From a virus: a DNA stretch of 22,499 nt. Location: IMG/VR virus record IMGVR_UViG_3300048080_000333. One strand, 5' to 3'. Under the pieces are notes generated by a model that searched no databases, was not told the origin of the DNA, and was given only the letters and a program-made list of their open reading frames with translations. How positions within the stretch are numbered: position 1 is the stretch's first letter; every line of letters starts with the position of its first letter. A program made the position numbers and the translations under genes. Below are positions 1 to 13,002 of this stretch, piece by piece.

Positions 1-55
1 ATACACAGAACACCGAAGGTACCCTGCCTCTCCCCAGGATATGCACCCTGACTAG

Positions 56-516
56 TGGGAAGATACCTTCCCTCTAACGATCAGGAGCCCCAAAGTTACA
101 GTAAAACTGATGAAAACCTCCTTAGAGATGACTTTCAGATGACTGGGAACCTCCCGCGATCTTCCGCGGGGTACTCCCTTTTCCAGAGCGTAGCCATTGG
201 GATCCCCGAGGCCGTTCCTGTTCCTCCCGAACCCGATCCGACTCGTGGCACCACTCTACCAAGGGCTGGGATGATCCCTGGGATCGGGTGGGACACGTCC
301 CAGTGACCTCTTGGTACCGTCTCGAAGTCGCAGAGATAGCCTGCGACAAGCCGCTGGGACAACCCTGGTATTGAGTGGGATCGTCGTAGCAGCGAGTTAT
401 AGGGCTGGGATACCCTTAGAGAACCTAGAGTATCCCACCTCACCCAAAGGGAGAGGGGTCCTCGAACAGCCCCTCTCTATCTCCCTCCAAAAATTGTCCC
501 GACTCGGTTCGTCCCA
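56..516. repeat. Cluster of 12 TGGGA/TCCCA pentamers (iteron-like)
   Basis: TGGGA at 56, 144, 198, 267, 279, 289, 355, 376, 406; TCCCA at 298, 433, 512; AGGGCTGGGAT twice (262, 401); no credible CDS here. Confidence 0.6.
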
Positions 517-532
517 GACCCCCAACGGGGTC

Positions 533-561
533 TTGACAAGCCACCTCGAAGCATCTACGAT
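533..561 (+). promoter_or_regulatory. sigma70-type promoter, probably leaderless
   Basis: TTGACA(533-538)-N17-TACGAT(556-561); ATG 569 falls at the expected +1. Confidence 0.8.
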
Positions 562-568
562 AGGAGGC

Positions 569-1102
569 ATGGACCAGGTGCTTCAGCAACAGTTGCTCGG
601 GGATGCAAGGGCAACCGACCTCTACTCGCTTCCCCTACCCAGTGTCAACTGGGCCAAAGCGGTCGTCGACGAGATCGTGGCTCGGTTCCGGCCAGACCTC
701 GATGTGGTAGTCAGATACACTCCCCGGCGCCCGGCCGGCACGGCCAAGTCCCTTCGGTGTCGCGGCCTGGCAGGGTACCTGTTGGTCGGGCACCACATCC
801 CGTTCCGCGGCGGGTGCCGAATCAACCTTTACTCGGGTGGTCGCGATGTCGGGACGCTCGCCCACGAACTCGCGCATGCCGTGTCGAACAGAGACCACGG
901 GTATGCCTTCAAGTTGGCCCATTCGCAAATACTCGATCTTCTCGAACAGTTGCCAGAGGTTGCCAAAGGCAACGAGGCAACGGGTTGCCTTTTGGCAACG
1001 CGGGGGTGCGAAGGTTCGATGCTGTCCAAAACCCCCTCGTGGGATGGTTCAGCAGACACGGGTTCGAGTCCCGTCACCTCCACCACCCCGGATCGGGCTT
1101 GA
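569..1102 (+). CDS. Zincin-like metalloprotease (SprT/WLM-like HExxH)
   Basis: TLAHELAH...HGYAF motif; start moved from 311 to ATG 569 on promoter position; last ~50 codons overlap repeats and an RNA gene. Confidence 0.7.
   Translation: MDQVLQQQLLGDARATDLYSLPLPSVNWAKAVVDEIVARFRPDLDVVVRYTPRRPAGTAKSLRCRGLAGYLLVGHHIPFRGGCRINLYSGGRDVGTLAHELAHAVSNRDHGYAFKLAHSQILDLLEQLPEVAKGNEATGCLLATRGCEGSMLSKTPSWDGSADTGSSPVTSTTPDRA
949..999. repeat. Six GTTGCC/GGCAAC half-sites forming nested inverted repeats
   Basis: GTTGCC at 949, 959, 984; GGCAAC at 968, 976, 994. Confidence 0.8.
1002..1085 (+). ncRNA. ssrA-like: Miniature tmRNA: tRNA-like domain only, no tag reading frame
   Basis: Acceptor GGGGGTG/CACCTCC with G3.U70, A73 and CCA; stemless D-loop CGAAGGTTCGA; P2 TGCTG/CAGCA followed by GAC; T-arm ACGGG-TTCGAGT-CCCGT; only 25 nt inside P2. 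Confidence 0.85.
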
Positions 1103-1128
1103 CAAACCGTGGACTCGTGAGGTAAACT
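1099..1128 (+). promoter_or_regulatory. sigma70-type promoter
   Basis: TTGACA(1099-1104)-N18-TAAACT(1123-1128). Confidence 0.7.
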
Positions 1129-1170
1129 ACTCGTAAGAATAGCCTGATTCCGTTGAAGAGGGAGTAGACC

Positions 1171-1365
1171 ATGGACCGTGAGAACTTGCTGACCCAACTG
1201 ATGCAAGACAGTCTTACAGACGCCGCGTCGGTTGCTCGGCACGAATGGGGTGCCCGGGCCGACCAGACCGCAGTAGTCATTCTCGCCGCGGCTCTCTTCT
1301 CCGAACGGGCTCGGGTAGGCACGGAGGCCCTCGAACGCGCCGTGTTCGGTCGAAAGGCTACCTGA
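1171..1365 (+). CDS. Hypothetical protein, 64 aa
   Basis: SD GAGGGAG; helical-looking sequence; TGATG coupling to next ORF. Confidence 0.7.
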   Translation: MDRENLLTQLMQDSLTDAASVARHEWGARADQTAVVILAAALFSERARVGTEALERAVFGRKAT

Positions 1366-1592
1366 TGGGCGCGCAACGCTGTTCGCGTCCATCCCGCCCC
1401 CGGCACGACCGCTGCGCCGGTTTCGGATGTCGCCGCCAACTGCCCAAACTGGCCCTGCGGTACCAGGACCGTTTTTGCTCGACTCGGTGCGCCCGAATCG
1501 CCTATGGCACCTGGCGCCCTATCGGAATGAAGGGGATCCCTGAGCGGTCGAGCCTATTCTTGTCTTTGTTGAGTTGCGGAGGCGAGCCATGA
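1365..1592 (+). CDS. Small Cys4 zinc-finger protein, 75 aa
   Basis: CAGFGC...RFCSTRC (treble-clef/TRASH-like); TGATG and ATGA overlaps at the two ends. Confidence 0.65.
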   Translation: MGAQRCSRPSRPRHDRCAGFGCRRQLPKLALRYQDRFCSTRCARIAYGTWRPIGMKGIPERSSLFLSLLSCGGEP

Positions 1593-1777
1593 GCAAAAAG
1601 TATCCGGCGCAAAGTAGCGACGAGGCCAAGAAACATGTCCCACGCTGGTTCCGTCGCGGTGCGTTGCATCGGTCCGGAGTAGTAAAGTTGTACCACAAGT
1701 TCCGCCGGGCCGTACGCCGGAATCCGAAGGCCGTCGCGCGACGGTTAGCCGTGCTACAGCAGTCCCCAAAGAGGTGA
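1589..1777 (+). CDS. Basic hypothetical protein, 62 aa
   Basis: SD GGAGG; ATGA overlap. Confidence 0.6.
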   Translation: MSKKYPAQSSDEAKKHVPRWFRRGALHRSGVVKLYHKFRRAVRRNPKAVARRLAVLQQSPKR

Positions 1778-1782
1778 TAACA

Positions 1783-2172
1783 ATGGCCACGCGATTGAAG
1801 ACTGCACGACAGATCCTGAATCTGTTGGACCGATGGTTCGTTGCACAGAAACAAGACGTTCGGGGTGCCGACGAAGGTCAAAAACTGTGGGATGTTCTCA
1901 CGGCCCTACGCGGTCCCGATATGCGTAAGTCATACAATTTGAAAAACACGACTACTTCAAGGATTCGGACAGCGGCGTTTCCTCGTTTGGCTACCAGGGG
2001 GGTGGGTGCTTTTGGGGCATCGTTTTCACAAGGAAAAATGATTCGTGTGCCTGCAGTGCTAACGACGGACCACATGCATTTTATCAAACACGTAAAAGGT
2101 GCTACGCGCGCCCTTGGACTTCGGATTCGAAAGATGAAGGCTCCGGCTTCGAAACCGGATGGGCCGTTCTAG
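1783..2172 (+). CDS. Phage hypothetical protein
   Basis: SD GAGGTG; globular-looking LWDVLTALRGPD...IRTAAFP core. Confidence 0.75.
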   Translation: MATRLKTARQILNLLDRWFVAQKQDVRGADEGQKLWDVLTALRGPDMRKSYNLKNTTTSRIRTAAFPRLATRGVGAFGASFSQGKMIRVPAVLTTDHMHFIKHVKGATRALGLRIRKMKAPASKPDGPF

Positions 2173-2642
2173 TGCCCCGGTTCGCTGTCGGTGATATCTG
2201 GCAGGAAATCGGGAAGGCCGGGGCCATCCTGGTCACCTCGAACTCCTATGTCAACTCGGCTGGGTGTCTGGTTATGGGGAGGGGTGCGGCCCGAGAGGCT
2301 GCTCTTCGCTGGCCCGCGTTGCCCCGGATCCTGGGGGACTACATCCGACAGTTTGGGGGACACCTCGGAGAGTACGGTGTCTTGTTCGTTAGCAAAAACG
2401 TCTTGGAGACCTCCAGCGACATTGGAGTCTTCCAGGTGAAGCGGCACTTCAGGGATCAGGCCTATCCGAGGCTTATCACAGCGTCGGTGTACAACCTTCG
2501 GGATTACGCCCACCGCTACGAGCGAATCGCCTTGAACTACCCCGGTATCGGAAACGGCCGGCTTCGCGAAGAGGACGTGCGTCCCCTCCTAGAGCCCTTG
2601 CCTGACAACGTTGTGATTTACAAGAAGGAGGTGGACGCCTAA
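2172..2642 (+). CDS. Macrodomain protein (DarG/TARG1-like ADP-ribosyl hydrolase family)
   Basis: GDIW, VTSN, LVMGRGAA, FQVKRHF and IALNYPGIGNGRL motifs. Confidence 0.85.
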   Translation: MPRFAVGDIWQEIGKAGAILVTSNSYVNSAGCLVMGRGAAREAALRWPALPRILGDYIRQFGGHLGEYGVLFVSKNVLETSSDIGVFQVKRHFRDQAYPRLITASVYNLRDYAHRYERIALNYPGIGNGRLREEDVRPLLEPLPDNVVIYKKEVDA

Positions 2643-2643
2643 C

Positions 2644-2781
2644 ATGGACAAAGTTGAATTCTGGATGTGGGCCGTGCTGTTCATTGTGGTGGTAATGGTC
2701 ATCGCGGCTATTCTATACACGCTCCTTCCAGTTGCCTATGTCCTTCTTATCCTCTCGGCTATGCATACGGTTCTGCGATGA
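2644..2781 (+). CDS. Small membrane protein, 45 aa (absent from ORF track)
   Basis: SD AAGGAGGT; MDKVEFWMWAVLFIVVVMVIAAILYTLLPVAYVLLILSAMHTVLR; ATGA overlap with next ORF. Confidence 0.7.
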   Translation: MDKVEFWMWAVLFIVVVMVIAAILYTLLPVAYVLLILSAMHTVLR

Positions 2782-3020
2782 GTCGCCTCACAAAGGCCGA
2801 GCGGGCGGAGATCGAAGCACAGGCGAGGACTATACAGGCCGGATTCGGAGACGTACCCGAGCCGACTAAATCGTACCTCGCTGCTAATGTGTTGCGTCTT
2901 CTCGCCTCCATCGAGTCTCTGGAGATCGTGGCGGAGGAAGCGGAAAACTTCTTACGTTCGAATAGTCATCCACAGGCCGCGTATTTCGCCGACCGTCTTC
3001 GAACAATCTTCGGGGAGTAG
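2778..3020 (+). CDS. Hypothetical helical protein, 80 aa
   Basis: ATGA-coupled start MSRLTKAERAE. Confidence 0.7.
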   Translation: MSRLTKAERAEIEAQARTIQAGFGDVPEPTKSYLAANVLRLLASIESLEIVAEEAENFLRSNSHPQAAYFADRLRTIFGE

Positions 3021-3023
3021 AGA

Positions 3024-3053
3024 TTGACAACCCCGGCGAACGTGTGGTAAGGT
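3024..3053 (+). promoter_or_regulatory. sigma70-type promoter with extended -10, probably leaderless
   Basis: TTGACA(3024-3029)-N18-TAAGGT(3048-3053) with TGTG extension; GTG 3061 at the expected +1. Confidence 0.75.
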
Positions 3054-3060
3054 TGTGGGG

Positions 3061-3384
3061 GTGACAGATCCTGCGTGGTACATCGTTACCGTCCTCGGCG
3101 TGCCGGTCGCTGGTCCCTACCATGGTGAGGATGACGCCATCACGGAATGTTGGAGGCTCCGCCGCGAAACAACGGTCGCCGGCGGGTCAGTGGACCTTCG
3201 GCGGTTTCGAGTCGTCAAACTGCTTCACGGGAAGATTGCATCCCTAGAAACATATCTCCGTGATCCGAAAGCCAAAGTGTATCGGCAAGGCGAAGTCCCG
3301 GATCACGAAGCGTTCGTCGCGCAGCAAGAAGGTCTGTGCATCGTGGTGCGGCACGAGGACGGCACGTTGGAGGTGTGTGCATGA
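3061..3384 (+). CDS. Hypothetical protein
   Basis: Open frame after promoter; ATGA overlap with next ORF. Confidence 0.7.
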   Translation: MTDPAWYIVTVLGVPVAGPYHGEDDAITECWRLRRETTVAGGSVDLRRFRVVKLLHGKIASLETYLRDPKAKVYRQGEVPDHEAFVAQQEGLCIVVRHEDGTLEVCA

Positions 3385-3842
3385 TACTACCGCCGGAGGA
3401 GCGCCAGCGCATCGCGGAGCGGGCCGAGAGAGTCGTGCGGTTAGTGGAGAAGGCACGAAGTGCAGACCCGCTGGTCGGCGGTTGGAATTGGCTGAATGAC
3501 GAGGAGTTGACGTTTCTTCATGCGACCGTACCTATGGTGGCCCAAGCATATCTCGACGTGTTGGCCTCCTTCGCGGCGGTTGAGCAGGAGCGGGATGAGG
3601 CGATTCTGGCTCATGGATATCTCGACAAAGGATTCTCTCGCGCCATATCAAGACTAGACCGCGCGACGGACGAACTCGTGCTGCTCCGTCCGATTGCGGA
3701 GGCGGCAAAGAAGCACAGGGATTCACGCCGTGGCCTTCGTGGACACGCCGACAAGGGGACGTTGAGTATGAAAGAATGGCACGGCGAGATACTAGACAAG
3801 GCGTTGGAGACGTGGCAGCAGGCCCAGGAGGACCGGACGTGA
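3381..3842 (+). CDS. Hypothetical coiled-coil protein
   Basis: SD GGAGGTG; ATGA and GTGA overlaps. Confidence 0.75.
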   Translation: MILPPEERQRIAERAERVVRLVEKARSADPLVGGWNWLNDEELTFLHATVPMVAQAYLDVLASFAAVEQERDEAILAHGYLDKGFSRAISRLDRATDELVLLRPIAEAAKKHRDSRRGLRGHADKGTLSMKEWHGEILDKALETWQQAQEDRT

Positions 3843-4330
3843 GCACGCAAGGGCCGATCAGTATAGGCATGTTCGTGCCGCCTAATCGAATCAAGATCGT
3901 ATTCAGTGAGCCGGAAACATTTGTCATAGTACATCCAGACGGGACGTTGGAGTACGGACCGGGATATACACCAGACGCTGCGGCGAAAGCGTTCTGGGAA
4001 GCCATCGTTGAGCCGCTGAGGTCTGCCCACACCGCCCTAGAGGACGCCCGCGCCCGGGTGGCGGTGCTGGAAGAAACAGGGATGGAGTTTATTGCGGCTG
4101 GAATGTTGTCAAATCCCCGGTTAGTGCAAGAAAGACGAGCGCCGTTTAGGATGGCGTTACAAGCCTCCTCCTCCCCCACTCCCGGCGAGGCGTGGAGGGC
4201 GATGGTGAAAGCCCTGGAACTCGTGAAACAAGCCATCACTCGCGCGAGCAGCGGTCTCTATGAAACGGGCGAATCACTCCAGTCCATTGAAGCCGCCCTC
4301 GCGCTGGCCCGACAGGTGACGGGGCGATGA
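3839..4330 (+). CDS. Phage hypothetical protein
   Basis: SD AGGAGG; GTGA overlap; VHPDGTLEYGPGYTPDAAAKAFWEA followed by helical region. Confidence 0.75.
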   Translation: MSTQGPISIGMFVPPNRIKIVFSEPETFVIVHPDGTLEYGPGYTPDAAAKAFWEAIVEPLRSAHTALEDARARVAVLEETGMEFIAAGMLSNPRLVQERRAPFRMALQASSSPTPGEAWRAMVKALELVKQAITRASSGLYETGESLQSIEAALALARQVTGR

Positions 4331-4512
4331 CAATTGCGAAGCGATACGAACACGATATGAAATTGTTCGTGACGGGCAGGCTGACTTTAAAAGAGTACGC
4401 ACGGATAGACGACGCTATTACGGAGGCGGTTCGGCGTACTATACGAAACCGGAAAAGGAAATGGGTTCTCTTTGGCCTTGCTTTTCGGGGAGTGCCGAGG
4501 CCCGACAGGTGA
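4327..4512 (+). CDS. Hypothetical protein, 61 aa
   Basis: ATGA overlap with upstream gene. Confidence 0.55.
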   Translation: MTIAKRYEHDMKLFVTGRLTLKEYARIDDAITEAVRRTIRNRKRKWVLFGLAFRGVPRPDR

Positions 4513-4548
4513 TGGGGTGATGACAGTGACCCCGGAGGTGAGCATACG

Positions 4549-4740
4549 ATGGGTATGAAACAACTAGAGGCGGCGATTCTGGTTGGCGCAAAGATTGTGT
4601 TCCACAACAGCAAGTTGCGCCAGAAGGACATCCGCGAGTGGTCAACGGGCAAGGTAAAACCACAGGATGGCGAGGTTGTTGCTCACATCCCAGACCCTGA
4701 AGTCTACGTCGCGATTCTCAAAGAACACGACAAGCGATGA
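4549..4740 (+). CDS. Hypothetical protein, 63 aa
   Basis: SD GGAGGTG. Confidence 0.7.
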   Translation: MGMKQLEAAILVGAKIVFHNSKLRQKDIREWSTGKVKPQDGEVVAHIPDPEVYVAILKEHDKR

Positions 4741-4780
4741 TCGGATGAAAATGGTCCTAGCAGTGTAGCAAACTACCTAC

Positions 4781-5107
4781 TTGACGACACACATGCGCTG
4801 GAGCATACAACCATGGATTCTACGCTTGTGGGGCCGCCCGATTCCGTCCCCCGAAGACTGGCTCGACACCCCCGAACTGATCGAAGCCGTCCGCGTGCTC
4901 TCGGAGCGCGAGCGCGCCGTCCTCTATCTTCGCATGGTTCAGGGACTGTCCCAAGTAGAGACCGCTCAAGTCCTGGGCATCGAAACCGCGCAATACGGAG
5001 ACAAGACGCAAGGGCGACAAGTGTTGGTCAGTCGGGCCGAAGTCAGCGCCCGAAAAAAACTGAAGATCCGCTTGTCCACGAGTACCGTCGGAACATCGAA
5101 AAACTGA
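4781..5107 (+). CDS. Stand-alone sigma70 region-4 HTH protein
   Basis: LIEAVRVLSERERAVLYLRMVQGLSQVETAQVLGI...VSRAEVSARKKLK; start TTG 4781 or ATG 4793 uncertain. Confidence 0.8.
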   Translation: MTTHMRWSIQPWILRLWGRPIPSPEDWLDTPELIEAVRVLSERERAVLYLRMVQGLSQVETAQVLGIETAQYGDKTQGRQVLVSRAEVSARKKLKIRLSTSTVGTSKN

Positions 5108-5743: not shown

Positions 5744-5772
5744 TTGACAAGAGTTTGAAATCGTGGTAGGCT
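5744..5772 (+). promoter_or_regulatory. sigma70-type promoter overlapping the tRNA-Ser 5' end
   Basis: TTGACA(5744-5749)-N17-TAGGCT(5767-5772) with TG extension. Confidence 0.55.
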
Positions 5773-5852
5773 GACAGAGCGGGAATGTAGCGGTCTCGAA
5801 AACCGACGTCGGCCTCGCGGCCGTGGGGGTTCGAATCCTCCGCCTATCGCCA
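5765..5852 (+). tRNA. tRNA-Ser(CGA)
   Basis: Cloverleaf, long variable arm, G73, CCA. Confidence 0.9.
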
Positions 5853-5857
5853 AGTAG

Positions 5858-5933
5858 GGACCCGTGGCGCAACTGGTAGCGCAGCCGCCTTTTAAGCGGA
5901 CGGGTGCAGGATCGTACCCTGCCGGGTCCCCCA
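5858..5933 (+). tRNA. tRNA-Lys(TTT)
   Basis: Cloverleaf; T-loop ATCGTAC (A54/U58 swap); CCA. Confidence 0.85.
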
Positions 5934-5956
5934 AAAACTACTCGGAGGCGTGACGC

Positions 5957-6121
5957 ATGAAGTTCAACTTGGTCAAGTTCATCACGGCGAACCGAGACGT
6001 GGCCATCGCGGCGGCTGTGTTCGTCCTTGTAGCCCTGGTGAATCCATTCAAGTCGTACGGAATCATCCCGCTGGCTCTCGCCGTCGGTGCGTTCTTCGCA
6101 GCGAAGCGGTACATCAAGTAG
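5957..6121 (+). CDS. Small two-TM membrane protein, 54 aa (absent from ORF track)
   Basis: SD GGAGG; MKFNLVKFITANRDVAIAAAVFVLVALVNPFKSYGIIPLALAVGAFFAAKRYIK. Confidence 0.75.
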   Translation: MKFNLVKFITANRDVAIAAAVFVLVALVNPFKSYGIIPLALAVGAFFAAKRYIK

Positions 6122-6147
6122 CGCGGCTTGTCGAGAGGTGTAGGGAT

Positions 6148-6297
6148 ATGCGCCGAGCACTCTATAGGATGGCACGGTGGACAATCTACGCGGTCGGGCG
6201 GAAATGGACACCGGAACGGCGCTTGTCGCTTCTCGGGCACGTTTCCCGTGTTCTGTATCCCGAACTCGGGCCGTTTTCGAAAATCAAGACCGCGTAG
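6148..6297 (+). CDS. Hypothetical protein, 49 aa
   Basis: SD GAGGTG; stop abuts tRNA-Val. Confidence 0.45.
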   Translation: MRRALYRMARWTIYAVGRKWTPERRLSLLGHVSRVLYPELGPFSKIKTA

Positions 6298-6371
6298 GCT
6301 CTTAGCCCAGTTAGTAGAGCACCTGCTCGACACGCAGGAGGTCGGGGGTGCAATTCCCTCAGAGCCTACCA
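6296..6371 (+). tRNA. tRNA-Val(GAC)
   Basis: Cloverleaf; C33; A18/G55; CCA. Confidence 0.85.
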
Positions 6372-6509
6372 GATGTGTCGCCGAAGTGGCACTAGTCCCG
6401 TGCAGTAGCCCGAGCGACCGGGTTGCGGGACGCCAAGAACACCGCAGCACGAATGGTCGGGGTGAGGATGCCTATGGGGTCCTTGCCCCGACGTAACAGG
6501 AGTGGAGAC

Positions 6510-6677
6510 GTGACGAAGCCAAAGGTTCGGTCGCCAATCGCTCCACCCGCGACCGTTGTCGTTCCCAAAAAGATGGCGAAGATCGCTGGCGTATCGCGTC
6601 GGCAAATCTTGCCCTTCGTGTCGGTTCAGGTGATTGGGCCGACGGGTAAGCGGAGAATGGAGAAGCGACCGAAATGA
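6510..6677 (+). CDS. Small basic protein, 55 aa
   Basis: SD AGGAGTGGAG; GTG start; ATGA overlap with next ORF. Confidence 0.55.
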   Translation: MTKPKVRSPIAPPATVVVPKKMAKIAGVSRRQILPFVSVQVIGPTGKRRMEKRPK

Positions 6678-6820
6678 ACAACAACAAAGTTTACAAGAAG
6701 AAAATCATTGGATGGAAGATCGGACGCGCGGGAGGCGGGGGAACTGCAATCGGACAGGGCACTCTTGGTGGAGTAACCGACCCTGGAATTTTCGGCGCGT
6801 GGATCCGCAAAAATTCATAG
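6674..6820 (+). CDS. Small Lys/Gly-rich protein, 48 aa (absent from ORF track)
   Basis: ATGA coupling; MNNNKVYKKKIIGWKIGRAGGGGTAIGQGTLGGVTDPGIFGAWIRKNS; stop abuts tRNA. Confidence 0.5.
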   Translation: MNNNKVYKKKIIGWKIGRAGGGGTAIGQGTLGGVTDPGIFGAWIRKNS

Positions 6821-6893
6821 GCCCTTAGCGCAACAGTAGAGCGCCTGTCTTACACACAGGAGGTTGCAGGGGCGGAACCTGCAGGGCCTACCA
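6819..6893 (+). tRNA. tRNA-Val(TAC)
   Basis: Cloverleaf; T-loop GGCGGAA; CCA. Confidence 0.8.
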
Positions 6894-6966
6894 GATGTAT
6901 CGGGGCGAAACGACCGAGGGTGGCGGGCTTGAAGGCCCGGAGAGTAGGCGGTGCCCCGGAGATTTG

Positions 6967-7042
6967 AGCCACGAGGAGAGGCAGTTCTTCTCGCCGATCT
7001 TATACATCGGAATCGCTGGCGCAACTCCAGCCGTGGCCACCA
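6967..7042 (+). tRNA. tRNA-Ile(TAT), divergent
   Basis: CCGAT-CT TAT AC-ATCGG; D stem GAGA/TCTC; A1.C72 mismatch; A8; CCA. Confidence 0.75.
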
Positions 7043-7046
7043 AACT

Positions 7047-7122
7047 GAACCCGTAGCCCAGGAGACAGAGCGCCGGCCTGCGAAGCCGGAGGTCGGGCGT
7101 GCGAATCGCCCCGGGTTCCCCA
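7047..7122 (+). tRNA. tRNA-Arg(GCG)
   Basis: Cloverleaf; A18/G55; A20; CCA. Confidence 0.85.
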
Positions 7123-7132
7123 AAGTGTACGA

Positions 7133-7208
7133 GGGCTCGTAACTCAGTGGACAGAGTGGCTGGCTTCGAACCAGTCGGGCGGGAGTTCAAATCTCTCCGA
7201 GCCCTCCA
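7133..7208 (+). tRNA. tRNA-Arg(TCG)
   Basis: Canonical cloverleaf; CCA. Confidence 0.92.
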
Positions 7209-7215
7209 GTTTCGT

Positions 7216-7289
7216 ACCTGCCTGGTCTAAGGGTCGGACGCCTGCCTGAAGAGCAGGAGGTCGCCGTTCAACTCGGCGGACAGGTACCA
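7216..7289 (+). tRNA. tRNA-Phe(GAA)
   Basis: Cloverleaf; one acceptor mismatch; CCA. Confidence 0.85.
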
Positions 7290-7478
7290 TGTTTCGAAGC
7301 ATCGGGGCGACGTCGACGGAGTCGAGGGCTTGCCTTTACAAAAGGCGCGGTCTAGTGGTTCCCCGATAGTGGGCGTGACGGCACGGTCGGCCGACCGTTG
7401 AGGTGCCGTCGCCAAGGGTGTGCAGGGGTCGGGGCCGCCCATTTGTACTGACAATGTAGGGACATGTCAATATCTATT

Positions 7479-7508
7479 TTGACAATGTACCGACAGTGTG
7501 GGTACAAT
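7479..7508 (+). promoter_or_regulatory. sigma70-type promoter inside the tRNA array, with overlapping GACA(A/G)TGT repeats
   Basis: TTGACA(7479-7484)-N18-TACAAT(7503-7508); TGACAATGTA at 7449 and 7480. Confidence 0.8.
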
Positions 7509-7527
7509 AAACACATCGAAAACGTTT

Positions 7528-7603
7528 CGGCCCGTAGTTCAGCAGAAAGAACGGCGCGTTCCTAACGCGCATGTCGGGTGTGCAAATCACCCCGGGCCGT
7601 CCA
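7528..7603 (+). tRNA. tRNA-Arg(CCT)
   Basis: Cloverleaf; A18/G55; CCA. Confidence 0.88.
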
Positions 7604-7611
7604 AGTTTCAA

Positions 7612-7687
7612 GGACCTCTGGCGCAACGAGTGGCGCAGGTGCCTCTTAAGCACAAGGATCCGGGTGCGAATCCCGGGAGGTCCTCCA
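7612..7687 (+). tRNA. tRNA-Lys(CTT)
   Basis: Cloverleaf; A18/G55; CCA. Confidence 0.88.
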
Positions 7688-7691
7688 GACG

Positions 7692-7767
7692 CGCGGGTGT
7701 AGTGGACCAGTACCATTCTAGGCTCATACCCTAGAGGTAGGCCGTGCAATTCGGCCCCCCGCAACCA
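7692..7767 (+). tRNA. tRNA-Met(CAT), initiator-like
   Basis: CGCGGG.../...CCCGCA A CCA with C1.A72 mismatch; only two of the three G-C anticodon-stem pairs. Confidence 0.75.
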
Positions 7768-7772
7768 AATAC

Positions 7773-7859
7773 GGAAAGATGCCGGAGAGGCTGAACGGGC
7801 CGTCCTGCTAAGACGGTGGCCGATGAGGCTCGCAGGTTCGAATCCTGCTCTTTCCGCCA
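7773..7859 (+). tRNA. tRNA-Ser(GCT)
   Basis: Cloverleaf, long variable arm, G73, CCA. Confidence 0.92.
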
Positions 7860-8080
7860 AATGTGGGGGTTGGGAGACGCTCCGCGCCTCCGCTCCCATA
7901 CGTCCGCACTCGGGAGTCCTGCTCGGGGCGCGCGCCCCTGCTACTAGAGACGGACGATTGAGGCCACCACCGAAGGCAGGATCACCGCGGATGGGTGGTG
8001 GCCATTTCCTTCATCGAGTATATAACTAGATTTCGTCTCGGTTATATACTGATCTCTTAGGTTGCCTTGGAACGTTACGC

Positions 8081-8156
8081 AGGGGCGTCGTTCAGTGGCC
8101 CAGGATGCTGGCCTCCAAACCCAGCGACGTGGGTTCGAATCCCACCGACCCTGCCA
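8081..8156 (+). tRNA. tRNA-Trp(CCA)
   Basis: Cloverleaf; G73; CCA. Confidence 0.9.
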
Positions 8157-8163
8157 AGATTTC

Positions 8164-8239
8164 TGCCCCGTGGCGCAATTAGCGGCGCGGCTCCTTCATA
8201 CGGAGATGGTTGTCGGTGCAAAGCCGACCGGGGCGACCA
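8164..8239 (+). tRNA. tRNA-Met(CAT), elongator-like (Ile2 not excluded)
   Basis: Cloverleaf; A18/G55; CCA. Confidence 0.8.
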
Positions 8240-8244
8240 AACAT

Positions 8245-8315
8245 GCCGTCGTCCCCCGTGGGGAATCCGAGCCTGTACCTCGGATGGTCGCGTTAGACTC
8301 GCGGAGGCGGCTCCA
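8245..8315 (+). tRNA. Non-canonical tRNA-Thr(TGT) with minimal D-arm and 7-bp anticodon stem
   Basis: GCCGTC/GGCGGC-T-CCA; ATCCGAG-CC TGT AC-CTCGGAT; T-arm TCGCG-TTAGACT-CGCGG. Confidence 0.6.
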
Positions 8316-8355
8316 GATTTGTCCGAAGAATGTAGTAAACTTCGGACAAAAGCAT

Positions 8356-8430
8356 CGGGGAGTGGCGCAGTAGGAGCGCAAGCGCCTTGGAAGCGCGAGG
8401 TCCCAGGTGCAAATCCTGGTTCCCCGACCA
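8356..8430 (+). tRNA. tRNA-Pro(TGG)
   Basis: Cloverleaf; C1-G72; A37; A18/G55; CCA. Confidence 0.88.
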
Positions 8431-8439
8431 ATAGAACGA

Positions 8440-8514
8440 GCCGGCGTAGTTCAGCAACAGAACGCCGCCCCCGTAAGGCGGATGTCCCTGGTGTGAGTCC
8501 AGGCGTCGGCTCCA
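8440..8514 (+). tRNA. tRNA-Thr(CGT)
   Basis: Cloverleaf; C33; A18A19 with G55U56; CCA. Confidence 0.82.
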
Positions 8515-8658
8515 AGTGCGCTTACCCTTCGGGGAATAGCGCAGGAGCCTCGGTTTCGGCCGAGGCCGTCGGGAACTCGTCTTGCGCCTTTGGCGCCAGG
8601 GGACGGGTAGGAAGCGAAGTGGGCGGGCCGCTTTCACTCTTGACCACAGGAGGCGGTA

Positions 8659-8760
8659 ATGACATGGGTAGACGTAGCCTTCTGGCAGGGACTGGCCCAG
8701 GACGCCGTTACGCTAGTGGTGGCGGTGTGGTACTTGGTCCAGCGTCGACGACATAAATAA
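8659..8760 (+). CDS. 33-aa single-TM peptide, type I toxin-like (absent from ORF track)
   Basis: SD AGGAGG; MTWVDVAFWQGLAQDAVTLVVAVWYLVQRRRHK. Confidence 0.6.
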   Translation: MTWVDVAFWQGLAQDAVTLVVAVWYLVQRRRHK

Positions 8761-8842
8761 TTGGACAGAGATGCAGGATGGATCGGGTTAAGAGAATCCC
8801 GGCTGGTGTGACATAGGCGTCTGCCACCCTGCTCAGTTTCGA

Positions 8843-8917
8843 GCCTCTGTAGTTCAGTGGCAGAACGCTCCCTCGGTAGGGGAGATGTCGGGCGTTCGAT
8901 TCGTCCCTGGGGCTCCA
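8843..8917 (+). tRNA. tRNA-Thr(GGT)
   Basis: Cloverleaf; C33; G38; CCA. Confidence 0.88.
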
Positions 8918-8925
8918 GATGACGT

Positions 8926-9000
8926 GGGCTGGTAGCGTAGTGGGAACGCGCCACGATGGCATCGTGGAAATCGCGGGTTCGAATCCCGCCCGGTCCACCA
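8926..9000 (+). tRNA. tRNA-Ala(GGC)
   Basis: Cloverleaf; G3.U70; CCA. Confidence 0.93.
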
Positions 9001-9307
9001 GAAACATCCGACAAGCATCCGAGGATGTGGTTGAAATGGGGAGTTGCTCATCGTCGCCTTCTGTGCTATCCTTGTGTGGTGGATATTGTCGGACGCGAAG
9101 ATCAGATTTCGATAGGTAGCAATAGGAGGGGCGGTTTGCGCTCGCGGCCTCTACCGCTACCTCAATGGCGGAATCCCTGGGGTTACGCCGCAGATTAGGG
9201 ACGCCCTCCTATTTTCGTCTTCGGCCACGTAACCGGGTAACCGGAGGGCGAGCCGATTACTCTCCGCATTCACCGGCTAACCGGAAAGAGGCGGAGGGGA
9301 TTTGCGT

Positions 9308-9384
9308 CTGGGCGTGGTGCAGCCTAGCAGCACGCACGCTTCGGGAGCGTGAGGTCGCAGGTGCGAATCCTGCCGCCCAGACCA
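9308..9384 (+). tRNA. tRNA-Pro(CGG)
   Basis: Cloverleaf; A18/G55; CCA. Confidence 0.9.
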
Positions 9385-9490
9385 GTGTGATCTCCCCCGC
9401 AACGGGTAGGGACGCCTCCCGTTGGTCGAGGGTTCTGGCCACCTACTCGGTCAGGTAAAAGGCGGCTCGGAATGGTCGGGCCGCAAATGT

Positions 9491-9566
9491 TGGGCCGTGG
9501 CGCAGTTGGTAGCGCGCCGGCATGGGGTGCCGGAGGTCGCCGGTTCGAGACCGGCTGGCCCAACCA
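9491..9566 (+). tRNA. tRNA-Pro(GGG)
   Basis: Canonical cloverleaf; CCA. Confidence 0.92.
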
Positions 9567-9573
9567 GTTTCGT

Positions 9574-9649
9574 TCCGGGAAGGTGTAACGGGTTGCACGC
9601 GCGGCTGTTACCCGCGAGGCGGCAGGTTCGAGACCTGCTCTCGGAGCCA
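9574..9649 (+). tRNA. tRNA-Asn(GTT)
   Basis: Cloverleaf; U1-A72; G73; CCA. Confidence 0.88.
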
Positions 9650-9920
9650 GTTTGAAAAACATGGGGCGATCTGCCAGAGACAGCGCGCGCCAGCGCGACT
9701 AGTCTGAGACGGCGACTCAGCCCCAGCAGAGGTAGGCCCGAGATTCGCAATCTGGGCCGAGGGCCGCCGTAGGGCCAAACTGGGCGCGGCGCGTAGGGGC
9801 GCAGGGTGGGAGCGTCCCCTTTAGAGTAGATCGGCAGATCGAGGGCGCACCGTCTCGGGGACGGTGTATTGGGACGGGATGGTGGGGCCTGTTCCTCGAC
9901 AAAAACTTAACAGCATTCGC

Positions 9921-9994
9921 GGGCTCATAGTTTAGTGACAAAACGCTGGCCTGTCACGCCAGGGTCGGGAGTTTGATTCTCCCTGGGCTCGCCA
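9921..9994 (+). tRNA. tRNA-Asp(GTC)
   Basis: Cloverleaf; A19-U56; G73; CCA. Confidence 0.88.
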
Positions 9995-9997
9995 AAT

Positions 9998-10083
9998 GTG
10001 GGCGTAGTGTAGCGGAGGCGCGAGCCAGCGCACGGAAGGCTGTGGCCCTTCCAGGTCGAGTTCAACTCTCGACGCTCACCCCA
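9998..10083 (+). tRNA. tRNA-His(GTG) with extra hairpin in the D-loop
   Basis: GAAGG-CT GTG GC-CCTTC; C73; 19-nt D-loop; CCA. Confidence 0.82.
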
Positions 10084-10090
10084 TATTCGA

Positions 10091-10164
10091 GCGGGCGTGG
10101 TGTAACAGTAGCATGAGGGCCTTCCAAGCCCTGGGCGAGGGCGCAAATCCCTCCGCTCGCTCCA
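10091..10164 (+). tRNA. tRNA-Gly(TCC)
   Basis: Cloverleaf; U73; T-loop CGCAAAT; CCA. Confidence 0.88.
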
Positions 10165-10169
10165 AGACT

Positions 10170-10243
10170 GCGGTTGTCGTCTAATAGTAGGATCGGACCT
10201 TGCCAAGGTTCGGATGACGGTGCGAATCCGTCCGGCCGCTCCA
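10170..10243 (+). tRNA. tRNA-Gly(GCC)
   Basis: Cloverleaf; U73; A18/G55; CCA. Confidence 0.88.
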
Positions 10244-10248
10244 GATAT

Positions 10249-10324
10249 GGCGTCGTAGCCCAACAGCAGAGGCACCGGCCCCAAAACCCGGACAGTGCGG
10301 GTGCAACTCCCGCAGGCGCCACCA
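10249..10324 (+). tRNA. tRNA-Leu(CAA), short variable loop
   Basis: Cloverleaf; C33; A18/G55; A73; CCA. Confidence 0.8.
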
Positions 10325-10329
10325 AGCAT

Positions 10330-10401
10330 GCCGAGATCGGGAGAGACGCCGCGTCGAAGCGACGGAACACCGTGAAATCCCCGATGCGATACTCGGCTCC
10401 A
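10330..10401 (+). ncRNA. CCA-ended, tRNA-sized structured RNA without a cloverleaf
   Basis: GCCGAG/CTCGGC-T-CCA terminal stem; ATCGGG/CCCGAT second stem; spaced like a tRNA between two tRNA-Leu genes. Confidence 0.55.
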
Positions 10402-10407
10402 ATTTGT

Positions 10408-10484
10408 GCAGGCGTGGCCCAATTGGCAGAGGCACACGCTTGAGGGGCGTGATGGTAGGAGTTCGAATCTCCTCGCCTGCACCA
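10408..10484 (+). tRNA. tRNA-Leu(GAG), short variable loop
   Basis: Cloverleaf; CCA. Confidence 0.9.
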
Positions 10485-10533
10485 GGCATACCACATGGTA
10501 TGACAAACAAGTTTGTCATACCAAAAAGATTGT

Positions 10534-10610
10534 GCCCGCGTAGCCCAATTGGTAGAGGCCGACGCCTCAGAAGCGTCGTAGTGGGAGTTCGAATCTCCCC
10601 GCCGGCACCA
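10534..10610 (+). tRNA. tRNA-Leu(CAG), short variable loop
   Basis: Cloverleaf; A37; CCA. Confidence 0.9.
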
Positions 10611-10616
10611 AGTTGT

Positions 10617-10690
10617 GCCCCCATCGTCTAGTAGCAGGATGCCACCCTCTCAAGGTGAGGACCCGGGTGCGATTCCCGGTGGGAGCACCA
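10617..10690 (+). tRNA. tRNA-Glu(CTC)
   Basis: Cloverleaf; A18/G55; CCA. Confidence 0.88.
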
Positions 10691-10751
10691 ACAAGGAAAG
10701 GATAGCCTCGATCCTGTCCTTGTGAGTGCGAGTAGGAAAGGATACGCGCGT

Positions 10752-10829
10752 GGGGTCGGTAGTTCAACTTGGGAGAACGCCTCGTTCGCACCGAGGAGGT
10801 TGCGGGTTCGAGTCCCGTCCACTCCACCA
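10752..10829 (+). tRNA. tRNA-Ala(CGC)
   Basis: G3.U70; bulged C in acceptor stem; CCA; followed by T9. Confidence 0.88.
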
Positions 10830-10853
10830 ACACTTTTTTTTTGGAGACGCACC

Positions 10854-11300
10854 ATGAAGGCTGCAGCGTGGGTTGTTTCGGCACTCGTGCTGGTATTGGC
10901 TCTCGTCATCCTGGGGTCCCGGAGCGGTGGGAGTCTGGAATCGTTCGTTGCTCGTCTCCCAGTCATCGGGAAGCCCGTGATGCCTGATGTCACGGGGGCC
11001 GTGATTGTGGAACTCTACGAGAACCCGTGCGGGGATGGACGGAATGGAGCCGTCAAAGTTCTGTCGCGGGCAGGGAAGCGCCCCCTCGTTGGTTTTTATC
11101 TGTCGGACGACCCAGAACATCCTTTTGCGGTACAAGATCGAGAAACACGTACGCTTTATCTTGACCTCAATCGGGACGGACGAGTTGACGAGATAGGAGA
11201 CGGCGCACGTACGATCTGTGATGATGTTCGCCGTGTCCCTCATCGAACGAGTCGTGCTCCAGTGATTCTTCCGGATCGGAGCCGAAAAGTCGTACTGTAA
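10854..11300 (+). CDS. Membrane-anchored or secreted protein, 148 aa
   Basis: SD GGAG; N-terminal hydrophobic helix; DLNRDGRVDE Ca-binding-like loop. Confidence 0.75.
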   Translation: MKAAAWVVSALVLVLALVILGSRSGGSLESFVARLPVIGKPVMPDVTGAVIVELYENPCGDGRNGAVKVLSRAGKRPLVGFYLSDDPEHPFAVQDRETRTLYLDLNRDGRVDEIGDGARTICDDVRRVPHRTSRAPVILPDRSRKVVL

Positions 11301-11305
11301 AGCAT

Positions 11306-11380
11306 GGCCCCGTCGTCTAGCGCCAAGGATTCTCGGCCTTCACCCGAGGGAGCAGAGTTGGATTCTCTGCGGGGCTACCA
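11306..11380 (+). tRNA. tRNA-Glu(TTC)
   Basis: Cloverleaf; C33; C19-G56; CCA. Confidence 0.82.
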
Positions 11381-11383
11381 TAT

Positions 11384-11457
11384 TGGGGAGTCGTTCAACG
11401 GCAGGATGCCGGGCTCTGAACCCGGTGATGGAAGTTCGAATCTTCCCGCCCCAACCA
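11384..11457 (+). tRNA. tRNA-Gln(CTG)
   Basis: Cloverleaf; U1-A72; CCA. Confidence 0.92.
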
Positions 11458-11474
11458 CTTTTTAAGGATTGAAT

Positions 11475-11762
11475 ATGGACATCGAGCGGATCGTTGAGCA
11501 GTTGCAAGAAGATATCTCGGAGATGCGAGTGAACGTGGCGGTGATTCGTGCAGACCTGGACAACCACGTCACGACGCTCGCCTCCGACCTCCGGTGTGTG
11601 AAGACCGACGTTCGGGGCGTTCGAGATGTCGTCGAGCGAATGGCTGGCGCGATGTCGAAGCCCGAACGAAGCAACGGTTGGCGGGCGACTTCTCTAGTGG
11701 TGTCTGGGTGGGCAGTCGGCCTCCTGATGCTGGTGTTGCAGTACCTGCTCAATAGTAAGTAG
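11475..11762 (+). CDS. Coiled-coil protein with C-terminal TM helix (XhlA-like architecture)
   Basis: SD TAAGGA; heptad pattern followed by SLVVSGWAVGLLMLVLQYLL. Confidence 0.7.
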   Translation: MDIERIVEQLQEDISEMRVNVAVIRADLDNHVTTLASDLRCVKTDVRGVRDVVERMAGAMSKPERSNGWRATSLVVSGWAVGLLMLVLQYLLNSK

Positions 11763-11766
11763 TTGT

Positions 11767-11840
11767 TGGGGTGTCGTTCAACGGCAGGACAGCAGGCTTT
11801 GAACCTGCGAATGTGGGTTCGATCCCTACCACCCCATCCA
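11767..11840 (+). tRNA. tRNA-Gln(TTG)
   Basis: Cloverleaf; U1-A72; CCA. Confidence 0.92.
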
Positions 11841-11872
11841 TCAATTCACTGTACCAGCGAATAGTAAACATT

Positions 11873-11948
11873 CCCCGGGTCGTCTAGCAGTCAGGACGCC
11901 ACTCTGATAAAGTGGAGGCCGGTGGTGCAAATCCACCCCTGGGGTCCA
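11873..11948 (+). tRNA. tRNA-Ile(GAT)
   Basis: Cloverleaf; A18/G55; U73; CCA. Confidence 0.85.
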
Positions 11949-11955
11949 GTGTCAA

Positions 11956-12033
11956 CCGTCCGTGGCCGAGTCGGAACGAGGCAGCGGGTTTCTACCCCGC
12001 CGGATGCAGGTTCAAGTCCTGCCGGACGGTCCA
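11956..12033 (+). tRNA. tRNA-Arg(TCT)
   Basis: GCGGG-TT TCT AC-CCCGC; CCA. Confidence 0.88.
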
Positions 12034-12038
12034 AACAT

Positions 12039-12112
12039 GACGACGTGGCCGAGAGGCGAGGCGGGGGTCTGCAAAGCCCTTGATGCCAGTTCGATTCTGG
12101 CCGTCGTCTCCA
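12039..12112 (+). tRNA. tRNA-Cys(GCA)
   Basis: Cloverleaf; U73; CCA. Confidence 0.9.
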
Positions 12113-12120
12113 AACTGTGT

Positions 12121-12209
12121 GGGTAGGTGCCGGAGTGGGCGAATGGGCCGGGCTGTAGACTCGGCGTCCTTCGGGGCCATCGGTGGTTCAAATCCATCCC
12201 TGCCCACCA
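12121..12209 (+). tRNA. tRNA-Tyr(GTA)
   Basis: Cloverleaf, long variable arm, CCA. Confidence 0.92.
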
Positions 12210-12258: not shown

Positions 12259-13002
12259 GTGTCAGAACGCAACGACGCTCCTCCTGTACCCTTGCCAGTG
12301 CCCCCAGACGGCGCTGATCCTCGGATATGGCGCCGGTATATGAGCGAACAGAATTTGAAGGGCAACGAACACCAGTCCTACGACGAGTTTCTGCAGAAGG
12401 ATGAGGAAAAGCGGCGGCGGCGCGACGAAGAGGTGGAGGCCAAGAAGGCGGCGAAAGAGGCCGCGGACGTGGCCAGAGCCACTAAGAAATCGTATGCGCC
12501 CGCGAATCTTTTCGAGGGACTCGATCTTGGTGCCGTCACGGACCTCGCATCGAGCCTGCCGCTAGAATGGCAGCGCGAGTTCCGGCGCGAAGTGGCGCGC
12601 ACGAAGGCGTATATCGCCAAGTTCGCGGACGCCGAGCCGGTCGTCCTTCTTATCGAAGAGTACGTCTATCTGGGATTCGTCGTCCGGGCGGTGTCCGTCG
12701 GCATTACGGCCGGGCAGTTCGACAAGAAAACCGCCGAGACTGCTGACATTCTTCTTCGGCGCCGCACCGAGATGGCGAGTGCGCTCGAACTTACGCCCGA
12801 AGCGAAGCGCAAGCGCGGCGGCCCGACCGAAGCGACCATCGCGGACGCCCTTGAGGCGTCCCAGAAGGCCGTTGCGGTCGCGCGTTCGGGTCGGCTCGAC
12901 CGCCGGACCCGGATGGCACAGATGCTGGCTGACAAGACGAACGACGCCGTGCGATCCCTGAAGCCCGCAGAGGACGCCACCACGGAAAACGCTGATGACT
13001 AA
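12259..13002 (+). CDS. terS: Probable terminase small subunit
   Basis: Overlaps the TerL start; helical; ALELTPEAKRK resembles the LGLTPxxR motif of P27-type TerS; start uncertain. Confidence 0.6.
   Translation: MSERNDAPPVPLPVPPDGADPRIWRRYMSEQNLKGNEHQSYDEFLQKDEEKRRRRDEEVEAKKAAKEAADVARATKKSYAPANLFEGLDLGAVTDLASSLPLEWQREFRREVARTKAYIAKFADAEPVVLLIEEYVYLGFVVRAVSVGITAGQFDKKTAETADILLRRRTEMASALELTPEAKRKRGGPTEATIADALEASQKAVAVARSGRLDRRTRMAQMLADKTNDAVRSLKPAEDATTENADD

Follow-up and report, generated by a model that had tools for sequence, protein, structure and literature searches.

Trans-translation is the main pathway of ribosome rescue and quality control in bacteria. Can a phage intervene in it with an RNA that keeps the tRNA-like domain (TLD) found in transfer-messenger RNA (tmRNA) and dispenses with the message? 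This question is raised by positions 1002–1085 of a 22,499-nt stretch of viral DNA (IMG/VR record IMGVR_UViG_3300048080_000333; the whole stretch is called the window below). A first-pass annotation, made from the letters alone, had described the element as a complete TLD that lacks the mRNA/pseudoknot domain and the tag open reading frame (ORF). We conclude that 1002–1085 is a tag-less mini-tmRNA gene composed of the TLD, P2a, an A-rich bulge and three base pairs of P2b, closed by a loop. As to its function, we lean towards a working gene whose RNA would compete with host tmRNA by way of host SmpB, alanyl-tRNA synthetase (AlaRS) and EF-Tu.

A tmRNA gene reduced to its tRNA-like domain

On the plus strand, 1002–1085 matches the Rfam tmRNA family RF00023 with 54.1 bits, above the gathering score of 47 bits (E value 6.5e-19 over the whole window and 1.1e-20 within a 401-nt sub-region). 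The alignment spans model positions 1–374 and includes both ends, with 292 model positions reduced to 6 nt, and the four pseudoknots PK1 to PK4 are absent. The RNA possesses neither a resume codon nor a tag reading frame nor a stop codon, and 35 nt lie inside P2. Because the triplets TAA, TAG and TGA do not occur in any frame of the 84-nt gene, there is no tag frame and no templated termination. Both parts of the first-pass description, the complete TLD and the missing message, are borne out by the sequence and by the end-to-end alignment with its large internal deletion.

The hallmarks listed by the first-pass annotation (G3.U70, an ACCA end, a stemless D-loop with GG, P2 followed by GAC, and the T arm) are all present in the sequence. 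The acceptor stem comprises 7 bp, formed by the 5' strand GGGGGUG (1002–1008) and positions 1075–1081, and includes the G3.U70 pair; the 3' strand CACCUCC is followed by the discriminator A73 and an encoded CCA (together 1075–1085). The stemless D-loop analogue CGAAGGUUCGA (1009–1019), which aligns to the tmRNA consensus GAucuGGaUUCGAC, provides the GG that meets the T loop. The 35-nt P2 hairpin (1020–1054) was delineated by constrained folding and by alignment to R1, a covariance model of the phage family introduced below. It consists of P2a (1020–1028 with 1045–1054), an AAA bulge (1029–1031), a P2b-like stem of three base pairs, CCC/GGG (1032–1034 with 1041–1043), and a loop of 6 nt (1035–1040); in terms of the family, bulge and closure read AAA(A), CCC/GGG and a 3' A. 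These parts correspond to P2a, the 3-nt GAA bulge, the first pairs of P2b and the 1-nt bulge on the returning strand of the Rfam consensus. A GAC linker (1055–1057) leads from P2 to the T arm ACGGG/UUCGAGU/CCCGU (1058–1074), which was located by sequence and by the RF00023 alignment.

The runs of ARAGORN and Rfam that the first-pass annotation had recommended gave a divided answer: the Rfam model passes its threshold, whereas ARAGORN, run on the window, called neither a tRNA nor a tmRNA at 1002–1085. An assignment as tRNA-Ala was rejected, as the anticodon arm is missing, ARAGORN is silent, and the Rfam tRNA match scores lower and is suppressed under the tmRNA match. A permuted two-piece tmRNA was likewise rejected. 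The 5' and 3' ends stand in the standard order, and the model of that class, RF04321, gives a partial match of 27.6 bits, which is below its cut-off of 47.

A covariance model restricted to the TLD had also been suggested by the first-pass annotation. R1 was built from 52 IMG/VR family members, with the window left out, and it scores the mini-tmRNA at 64.7 bits (E value about 2e-12) from end to end (positions 1–82). The runners-up in the window are two tRNA-Ala genes with 34.7 and 32.8 bits. The single-sequence fold energy of the mini-tmRNA is unexceptional (z = -1.0); hence, the support for the gene comes from homology and from covariation within the family rather than from thermodynamics.

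The phage mini-tmRNA family

The family was collected with a pattern composed of the 5' TLD half, 25–55 nt and the 3' TLD half, which a full-length tmRNA is unable to match. The pattern is fitted by 119 IMG/VR viral contigs, among them Mycobacterium phage DS6A. About 100 of the sequences are unique, in 97 the acceptor stem is paired throughout, and the lengths peak sharply at 80–83 nt. An ACCA end is encoded in only 31 of 103 unique sequences. According to constrained folding the members follow a common plan: an unpaired D-loop of about 12 nt, a P2 of 6–8 bp, a 4-nt A-rich bulge, a hairpin of 3–4 bp, a bulge of 1–2 nt, the linker RAC and the T arm. By their predicted structures all family members are truncated at the same point, as indicated by the shared layout of P2a, bulge and start of P2b.

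The helices are supported by covariation. When 100 family sequences were aligned to the model, 94.2% of the paired cells were complementary, as compared with 41–57% when the partner column was slid, and the covariation score was 0.604 as compared with 0.141 after shuffling, with none of 500 shuffles reaching the observed value. Compensatory changes occur at each of the seven P2 pairs, and every one of them is represented by six pair types. In the T stem, pairing reaches 100% across the family and three pairs covary; all seven acceptor pairs hold, and those at positions 5 and 6 covary with 5–6 pair types. Covariation of the T stem and the acceptor stem is already visible in a MAFFT-only alignment to which no structure was fitted, and there P2 is paired in 36–44 of 52 sequences, as compared with mostly 14–32 after sliding.

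The G3.U70 pair was imposed in the first scan only, while positions 3 and 70 were left free in a second scan. Among the matches listed from that second scan, every unique sequence whose acceptor stem is otherwise intact carries G3.U70 (92 of 92). A wobble pair of this kind is one transition away from loss and was nevertheless kept while neighbouring pairs turned over, which argues for selection for alanine identity. Column statistics revealed further conservation that no pattern had imposed. The D-loop UCGA is conserved at 62–85%; the bulge has A in 92%, A in 86% and then a purine in 95% of the sequences; two pairs close the hairpin, with C at 98% and 86% on one strand and G at 70% and 99% on the other; and the linker G is conserved in 73%, the AC after it having been set by the pattern. 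The idea that a bulge UAA might act as a built-in stop throughout the family was rejected, because U opens the bulge in no more than roughly half of the family, and AAAA stands there in the window.

For annotation it is relevant that ARAGORN overlooks about 90% of these genes (106 of 116 family members) and that most of them are within reach of the current Rfam model for tmRNA, with 18 of 20 sampled members lying above the cut-off of Rfam 15. Ten further members were recovered from JGI metagenomes with a subclass pattern, none of them related to the phage of the window; a pattern specific for the window gave no match in the metagenomes. When bacterial genomes were scanned, 102 of 120 loci proved to be either the 3' portions of complete tmRNA genes or tRNA-Tyr genes. 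About nine of the 120 are plausible mini-tmRNAs (L134, L159, L170, L183, L190, L214, L244, L249 and L133), all in contigs of metagenome-assembled genomes, and they yielded no host assignment. The taxa assigned to these genomes include Aquaspirillum, Gammaproteobacteria, Halanaerobiales, Gemmatimonadota, Lentisphaerae, Chloroflexota and others, and the contigs may be prophages or mis-binned viral sequences.

Family members mostly reside within head operons, in arrangements such as terminase–mini-tmRNA–portal or protease–mini-tmRNA–capsid, with neighbours that are close and on the same strand. The immediate downstream ORFs (n = 51) include 16 portal proteins and some 9–13 major head proteins, and the upstream ORFs (n = 57) about 14 large terminases and about 8 head proteases. 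A recurrent partner protein was considered and rejected, since the genes next to the mini-tmRNA are of ordinary kinds (head, packaging or exonuclease) and vary by sub-lineage, and none is common with the window. No SmpB (PF01668) is encoded in five mini-tmRNA-bearing phage records, which include DS6A and two genomes rated 100% complete by CheckV, and this points to dependence on the host factor.

The tight placement between cistrons of the same strand invites the view that the tRNA-like fold serves as a site for RNase P and 3' trimming through which cistrons are parted or mRNA ends defined, and takes no part in trans-translation. Upstream stop codons indeed lie 1–4 nt before G1, or they share their last base with G1, as in 7 of 97 unique loci (L005, L011, L031 and L086 among them; in four of the seven the upstream gene is an exonuclease, phrog_284). 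Cleavage by RNase P at such a shared base would take away part of the stop codon. In the window, too, a gene ends with the element and a promoter-like site follows it. However, RNase P needs no more than the acceptor/T minihelix, so that the invariant G3.U70, the tmRNA-type D-loop and the P2a–bulge–P2b module of fixed length are left unexplained. We consider such processing punctuation quite unlikely as the sole function and favour a mini-tmRNA that acts on trans-translation.

The same survey bears on a possible role in integration. tmRNA genes commonly serve as integration sites, and phages carry tmRNA 3' ends; the element might then be a phage attachment site (attP) that mimics host ssrA. 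In the mini-tmRNA, however, the 5' half is present as well, and the 30-nt 3' half gave no exact match when 185,579 species genomes were searched. An integrase is found as only one of the 51 immediate downstream neighbours in the family, the integrase of DS6A lies about 10 kb from its copy, and none was detected among the window proteins tested. An attP mimic is therefore exceedingly improbable, and the first-pass statement holds that the element, whose ends are in normal order, is not a fragment of attP and not a permuted gene either.

Several RNA-repair genes recur in phages that carry mini-tmRNAs or are related to such phages. A polynucleotide kinase (phrog_415) is the upstream neighbour in four mini-tmRNA loci (alignment A6), an RNA ligase (PF09414) is encoded at 1657–2319 of L252, a contig related to the window, and gp76 of DS6A is an RtcB-like ligase. 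In addition, two related viral contigs contain matches to type II hammerhead ribozymes (L007 974–1038, minus strand, and L049 8191–8263, plus strand; 44.1 and 38.6 bits with a cut-off of 37), located about 1.2–1.4 kb from the mini-tmRNA.

An insertion at the end of the HExxH gene

In the window the mini-tmRNA gene lies within the reading frame of a gene for a protein with the zinc-protease motif HExxH (HELAH; 569–1102, plus strand, recognized from its translation). The frame stays open through a palindrome cassette (949–1001) and the entire mini-tmRNA up to the TGA at 1100–1102. Two metagenomic homologs of the protein (128 and 149 amino acids, 65% identity) cover the first 72% of the ORF, and nothing tmRNA-like was found in their contigs, where R1 reaches 10 bits at best with filters off. 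Alignment A7 with these related contigs defines a 150-nt insertion (949–1098, plus strand) that comprises the cassette, the mini-tmRNA and CCCCGGATCGGGC. The relatives run from the conserved end of the gene straight into the TTGACA box, and their TGA stop is at the same place. The comparison shows that a small cassette bearing the mini-tmRNA was either gained here or lost by the relatives.

The length of the insertion is divisible by three and no stop interrupts it; it makes up about the last 50 codons of the HExxH gene. About 22% of composition-matched shuffles are free of stops in a given frame, and the open frame could therefore be due to chance. Excision of the mini-tmRNA would leave the HExxH mRNA without a stop codon.

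The first-pass annotation had named a full-length tmRNA in relatives as the finding that would speak against a genuine mini-gene, and nothing tmRNA-like occurs at this locus in the related contigs. This absence argues for ruling out a decayed or mis-assembled full-length tmRNA. Full-length phage tmRNAs do exist, for example in the Bxz1 group (PMC4131195) and, with 351 nt, in an Enterococcus Schiekvirus, so that a remnant or an assembly deletion has to be weighed. Against such an origin stand the deletion boundaries, which are those of about 100 independent family members, the intact closure of P2 and the complete pairing of all helices. We regard it as very improbable; together with the attP mimic it is close to excluded, and an intact mini-tmRNA gene remains our preferred reading of the locus.

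The cassette of inverted and direct repeats that abuts the 5' end of the mini-tmRNA contains four GTTGCC and four GGCAAC hexamers and can form alternative hairpins. Within the window its motif is confined to this place, and the relatives L252 and L253 lack it. The cassette might act as a structured leader, bind a protein or be the scar of an insertion. A sigma-70-like promoter at 533–561 (plus strand; TTGACA-17-TACGAT, 10 of 12 consensus positions) is the likely source of the mini-tmRNA transcript, judged from its match to the consensus. A second site of this kind, recognized in the same way, precedes the next gene (1099–1128, plus strand; TTGACA-18-TAAACT, 10 of 12), and the TGA of the HExxH frame falls within its -35 box.

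The window, with a G+C content of about 60%, comes from a phage, as seen from a gene for the large terminase (12995–14599; phrog_2, E value 1e-21) that is followed by large ORFs of the head region. A megablast search of INPHARED with positions 1–5000 returned no match, a terminase search of IMG/VR found no relatives of the phage, and the five phages whose mini-tmRNAs are most similar do not have this terminase. No SmpB was found among 20 ORFs scanned in the window. A same-strand array of about 38 tRNA genes predicted by ARAGORN and Rfam occupies 5765–12209 and begins 4.7 kb downstream of the mini-tmRNA. Since 103 of 116 family loci have no tRNA gene around them in the available stretch, this array is atypical for the family. 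ARAGORN reported 34 tRNAs in the window; four genes were found by Rfam only (6819–6890, 9574–9646, 10091–10161 and 10249–10321), and a tRNA-Ser called by ARAGORN on the minus strand (7148–7224) overlaps two plus-strand tRNAs and is probably spurious. A phosphatase-like ORF (phrog_335) lies at 2172–2642.

Proposed function and relation to known systems

How could such an RNA act? SmpB binds the TLD and enhances its charging, and the TLD–SmpB complex mimics an A-site tRNA. The DS6A element is listed as 'Mycobacterium phage DS6A (TLD only)' by Hudson, Lau and Williams 2014 (PMC4131195). A molecule similar to it is reported to inhibit tmRNA strongly in E. coli, perhaps via titration of SmpB (Mao et al. 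2009, as summarized in PMC4131195 and PMC11915505), and according to the summary in PMC4131195 this inhibition does not need a chargeable RNA. A TLD fragment together with SmpB, as PMC3929946 relates for work by Shimizu and Ueda 2006, directs template-free polyalanine synthesis in vitro. The first-pass annotation had offered two functions, an SmpB decoy and untemplated alanine addition, and these are the two for which the literature provides support.

We propose the following course of events, which in our opinion is somewhat more probable than its negation. Transcription would start near position 533 and the mini-tmRNA would be co-transcribed with the HExxH gene, from whose mRNA it could be excised by RNase P and 3' trimming. 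Host AlaRS would charge it with alanine, host SmpB would bind it and EF-Tu would deliver it, and it would then vie with the tmRNA of the host both for SmpB and for stalled ribosomes. During infection this would lower trans-translation as well as ssrA degradation tagging.

A related possibility is that the alanine-charged RNA enters stalled ribosomes with host SmpB, accepts the nascent chain and adds one or several alanines, so that ribosomes are freed without an ssrA degron and another factor completes release. Such tag-less rescue overlaps with our proposal and differs from it in the effect that is under selection; we view it as a tentative alternative. It would account for G3.U70 being retained in every one of the sequences discussed above, though transitions easily remove this pair and titration is reportedly independent of charging. 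It is also in line with the polyalanine synthesis reported in vitro, with the location of the family in heavily translated head operons, and with jakobid mitochondria, whose tmRNA without an mRNA domain retains G3.U70 and A73 and is thought to be limited to the freeing of ribosomes (PMC3590771). On the other hand, the RNA of the window is stop-free in every frame, so that translation on it cannot end; the sole in vivo result that the cited summaries give for this class of RNA is inhibition of tmRNA; and host tmRNA already frees ribosomes.

Several considerations weigh against competition with host tmRNA as we propose it. The constant retention of G3.U70, set beside an inhibition that reportedly works without charging, suggests that simple titration of SmpB is not the whole story; if charging is dispensable for inhibition and the pair is nevertheless invariant, the RNA is more likely to act on the ribosome than by titration alone. 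Furthermore, alignment A4 was fitted to the model structure and leans towards it, and the invariance of G1–G4, G7, A73, GG and GUUCGA was imposed by the search patterns and is no evidence. Finally, the collections searched contain no close sibling of the copy in the window, so that for its conservation we rely on the match to the family model.

It is tempting to speculate beyond the competing mini-tmRNA that we favour. In place of a passive sponge for SmpB, a charged and ribosome-active RNA, as hinted at by the invariant G3.U70, might be part of a self-referential circuit in which the stop-free, in-frame insertion makes the HExxH mRNA a non-stop message upon excision, while the excised mini-tmRNA sets the fate of the HExxH product, which could be tagged and degraded, spared or alanine-tailed. 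In the wider family, phages might place these genes in head operons to re-programme ribosome rescue during late expression. We regard this combined scenario as doubtful.

If the proposed function holds true, a widespread RNA of 80 nt that plugs into trans-translation would imply that phages routinely manipulate this pathway, which has been put forward as an antibiotic target (PMC8778911), and the RNA would represent a compact natural inhibitor or probe of the SmpB–tmRNA system. With more than 100 diverse members, a fixed truncation, a conserved bulge and G3.U70, the family makes it possible to distinguish experimentally between a sponge, for which charging is dispensable, and an action on the ribosome, which requires it.

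The RNA of the window shares with standard SsrA (RF00023) a homologous TLD, including G3.U70, A73, the D-loop, the T arm, P2a, a GAA-type bulge and the start of P2b. By contrast, it has no resume codon, tag frame or stop and none of the four pseudoknots (292 of 374 model positions), and templated tagging and termination are not possible with it. Full-length phage tmRNAs, as known from mycobacteriophages of the Bxz1 group, from Bacillus phage G and, in a two-piece form, from Melnitz (PMC4131195), are likewise ssrA homologs encoded by phages and are often found near tRNA genes, yet they retain tag frame and pseudoknots. BLAST matches in Enterococcus phages were rejected as mini-tmRNAs since they are ordinary, unannotated full-length tmRNAs. 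One of them, in Enterococcus phage vB_OCPT_Ben (MN027503, about 103548–103898; L003 1181–1531), measures 351 nt, scores 149.5 bits with RF00023 and is situated among tRNA genes in an intergenic stretch without an annotated feature; a 28-nt match to its 3' end is common to five other Schiekvirus records.

Reduction to the TLD with retention of the alanine identity elements is also seen in the tmRNAs of jakobid mitochondria (Jacob et al. 2004; PMC3590771) and of Mallomonadaceae plastids (PMC11915505). These are organellar and mostly two-piece or permuted, are accompanied by a dedicated SmpB and take the place of the resident tmRNA, whereas the RNA of the window is added by a virus beside the tmRNA of the host. 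Engineered TLD fragments, such as that of T. thermophilus in which 25 nt of the 5' end and 34 nt of the 3' end are joined by UUCG, resemble it in having P2a closed by a loop (PMC3929946). They are charged, bind SmpB and sustain the synthesis of polyalanine without a template (PMC3929946). Unlike the phage RNA they are artificial, about 20 nt shorter and devoid of the conserved A-rich bulge and the P2b stub.

The closest counterpart is the tmRNA of DS6A, which is entered in the tmRNA Website as tmID 11587 (Phage__Mycobacterium.9) and taken up again in a database paper of 2025 that adds plastid forms of about 65 bp without a coding sequence in Mallomonadaceae (PMC11915505). We located the element, which is unannotated in its record, at 28478–28560 of JN698994 (83 nt; L080). 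It shares the architecture of the 84-nt RNA of the window, and both align to RF00023 and R1 from end to end, with R1 scores of 68.2 bits for DS6A and 64.7 bits for the window. G3.U70, the stemless D-loop, P2 with its A-rich bulge and short hairpin, the lack of a tag frame and the phage origin are common to both. The two RNAs differ in that they agree at no more than about half of the aligned positions, that they come from unrelated phages and unrelated genomic surroundings, the DS6A copy being located between gp33 and a DNA polymerase III gene and that of the window in the insertion which ends the HExxH gene, and that the DS6A copy ends in ACUA where the window encodes CCA. In addition, the DS6A element with its 43.2 bits misses the RF00023 cut-off, which the copy of the window passes. 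The literature searched contains no description of a broader family of mini-tmRNAs in phages, and DS6A is the only phage example named there. Thus, the kind of RNA described here is not new: the copy in the window is a fresh member, from another phage lineage and in another context, of a class already published. What seems to go beyond that literature is the size of the family, its fixed truncation with the conserved bulge, the retention of G3.U70 under an unbiased search, the location in head operons and, in the window, the in-frame insertion of the mini-tmRNA.

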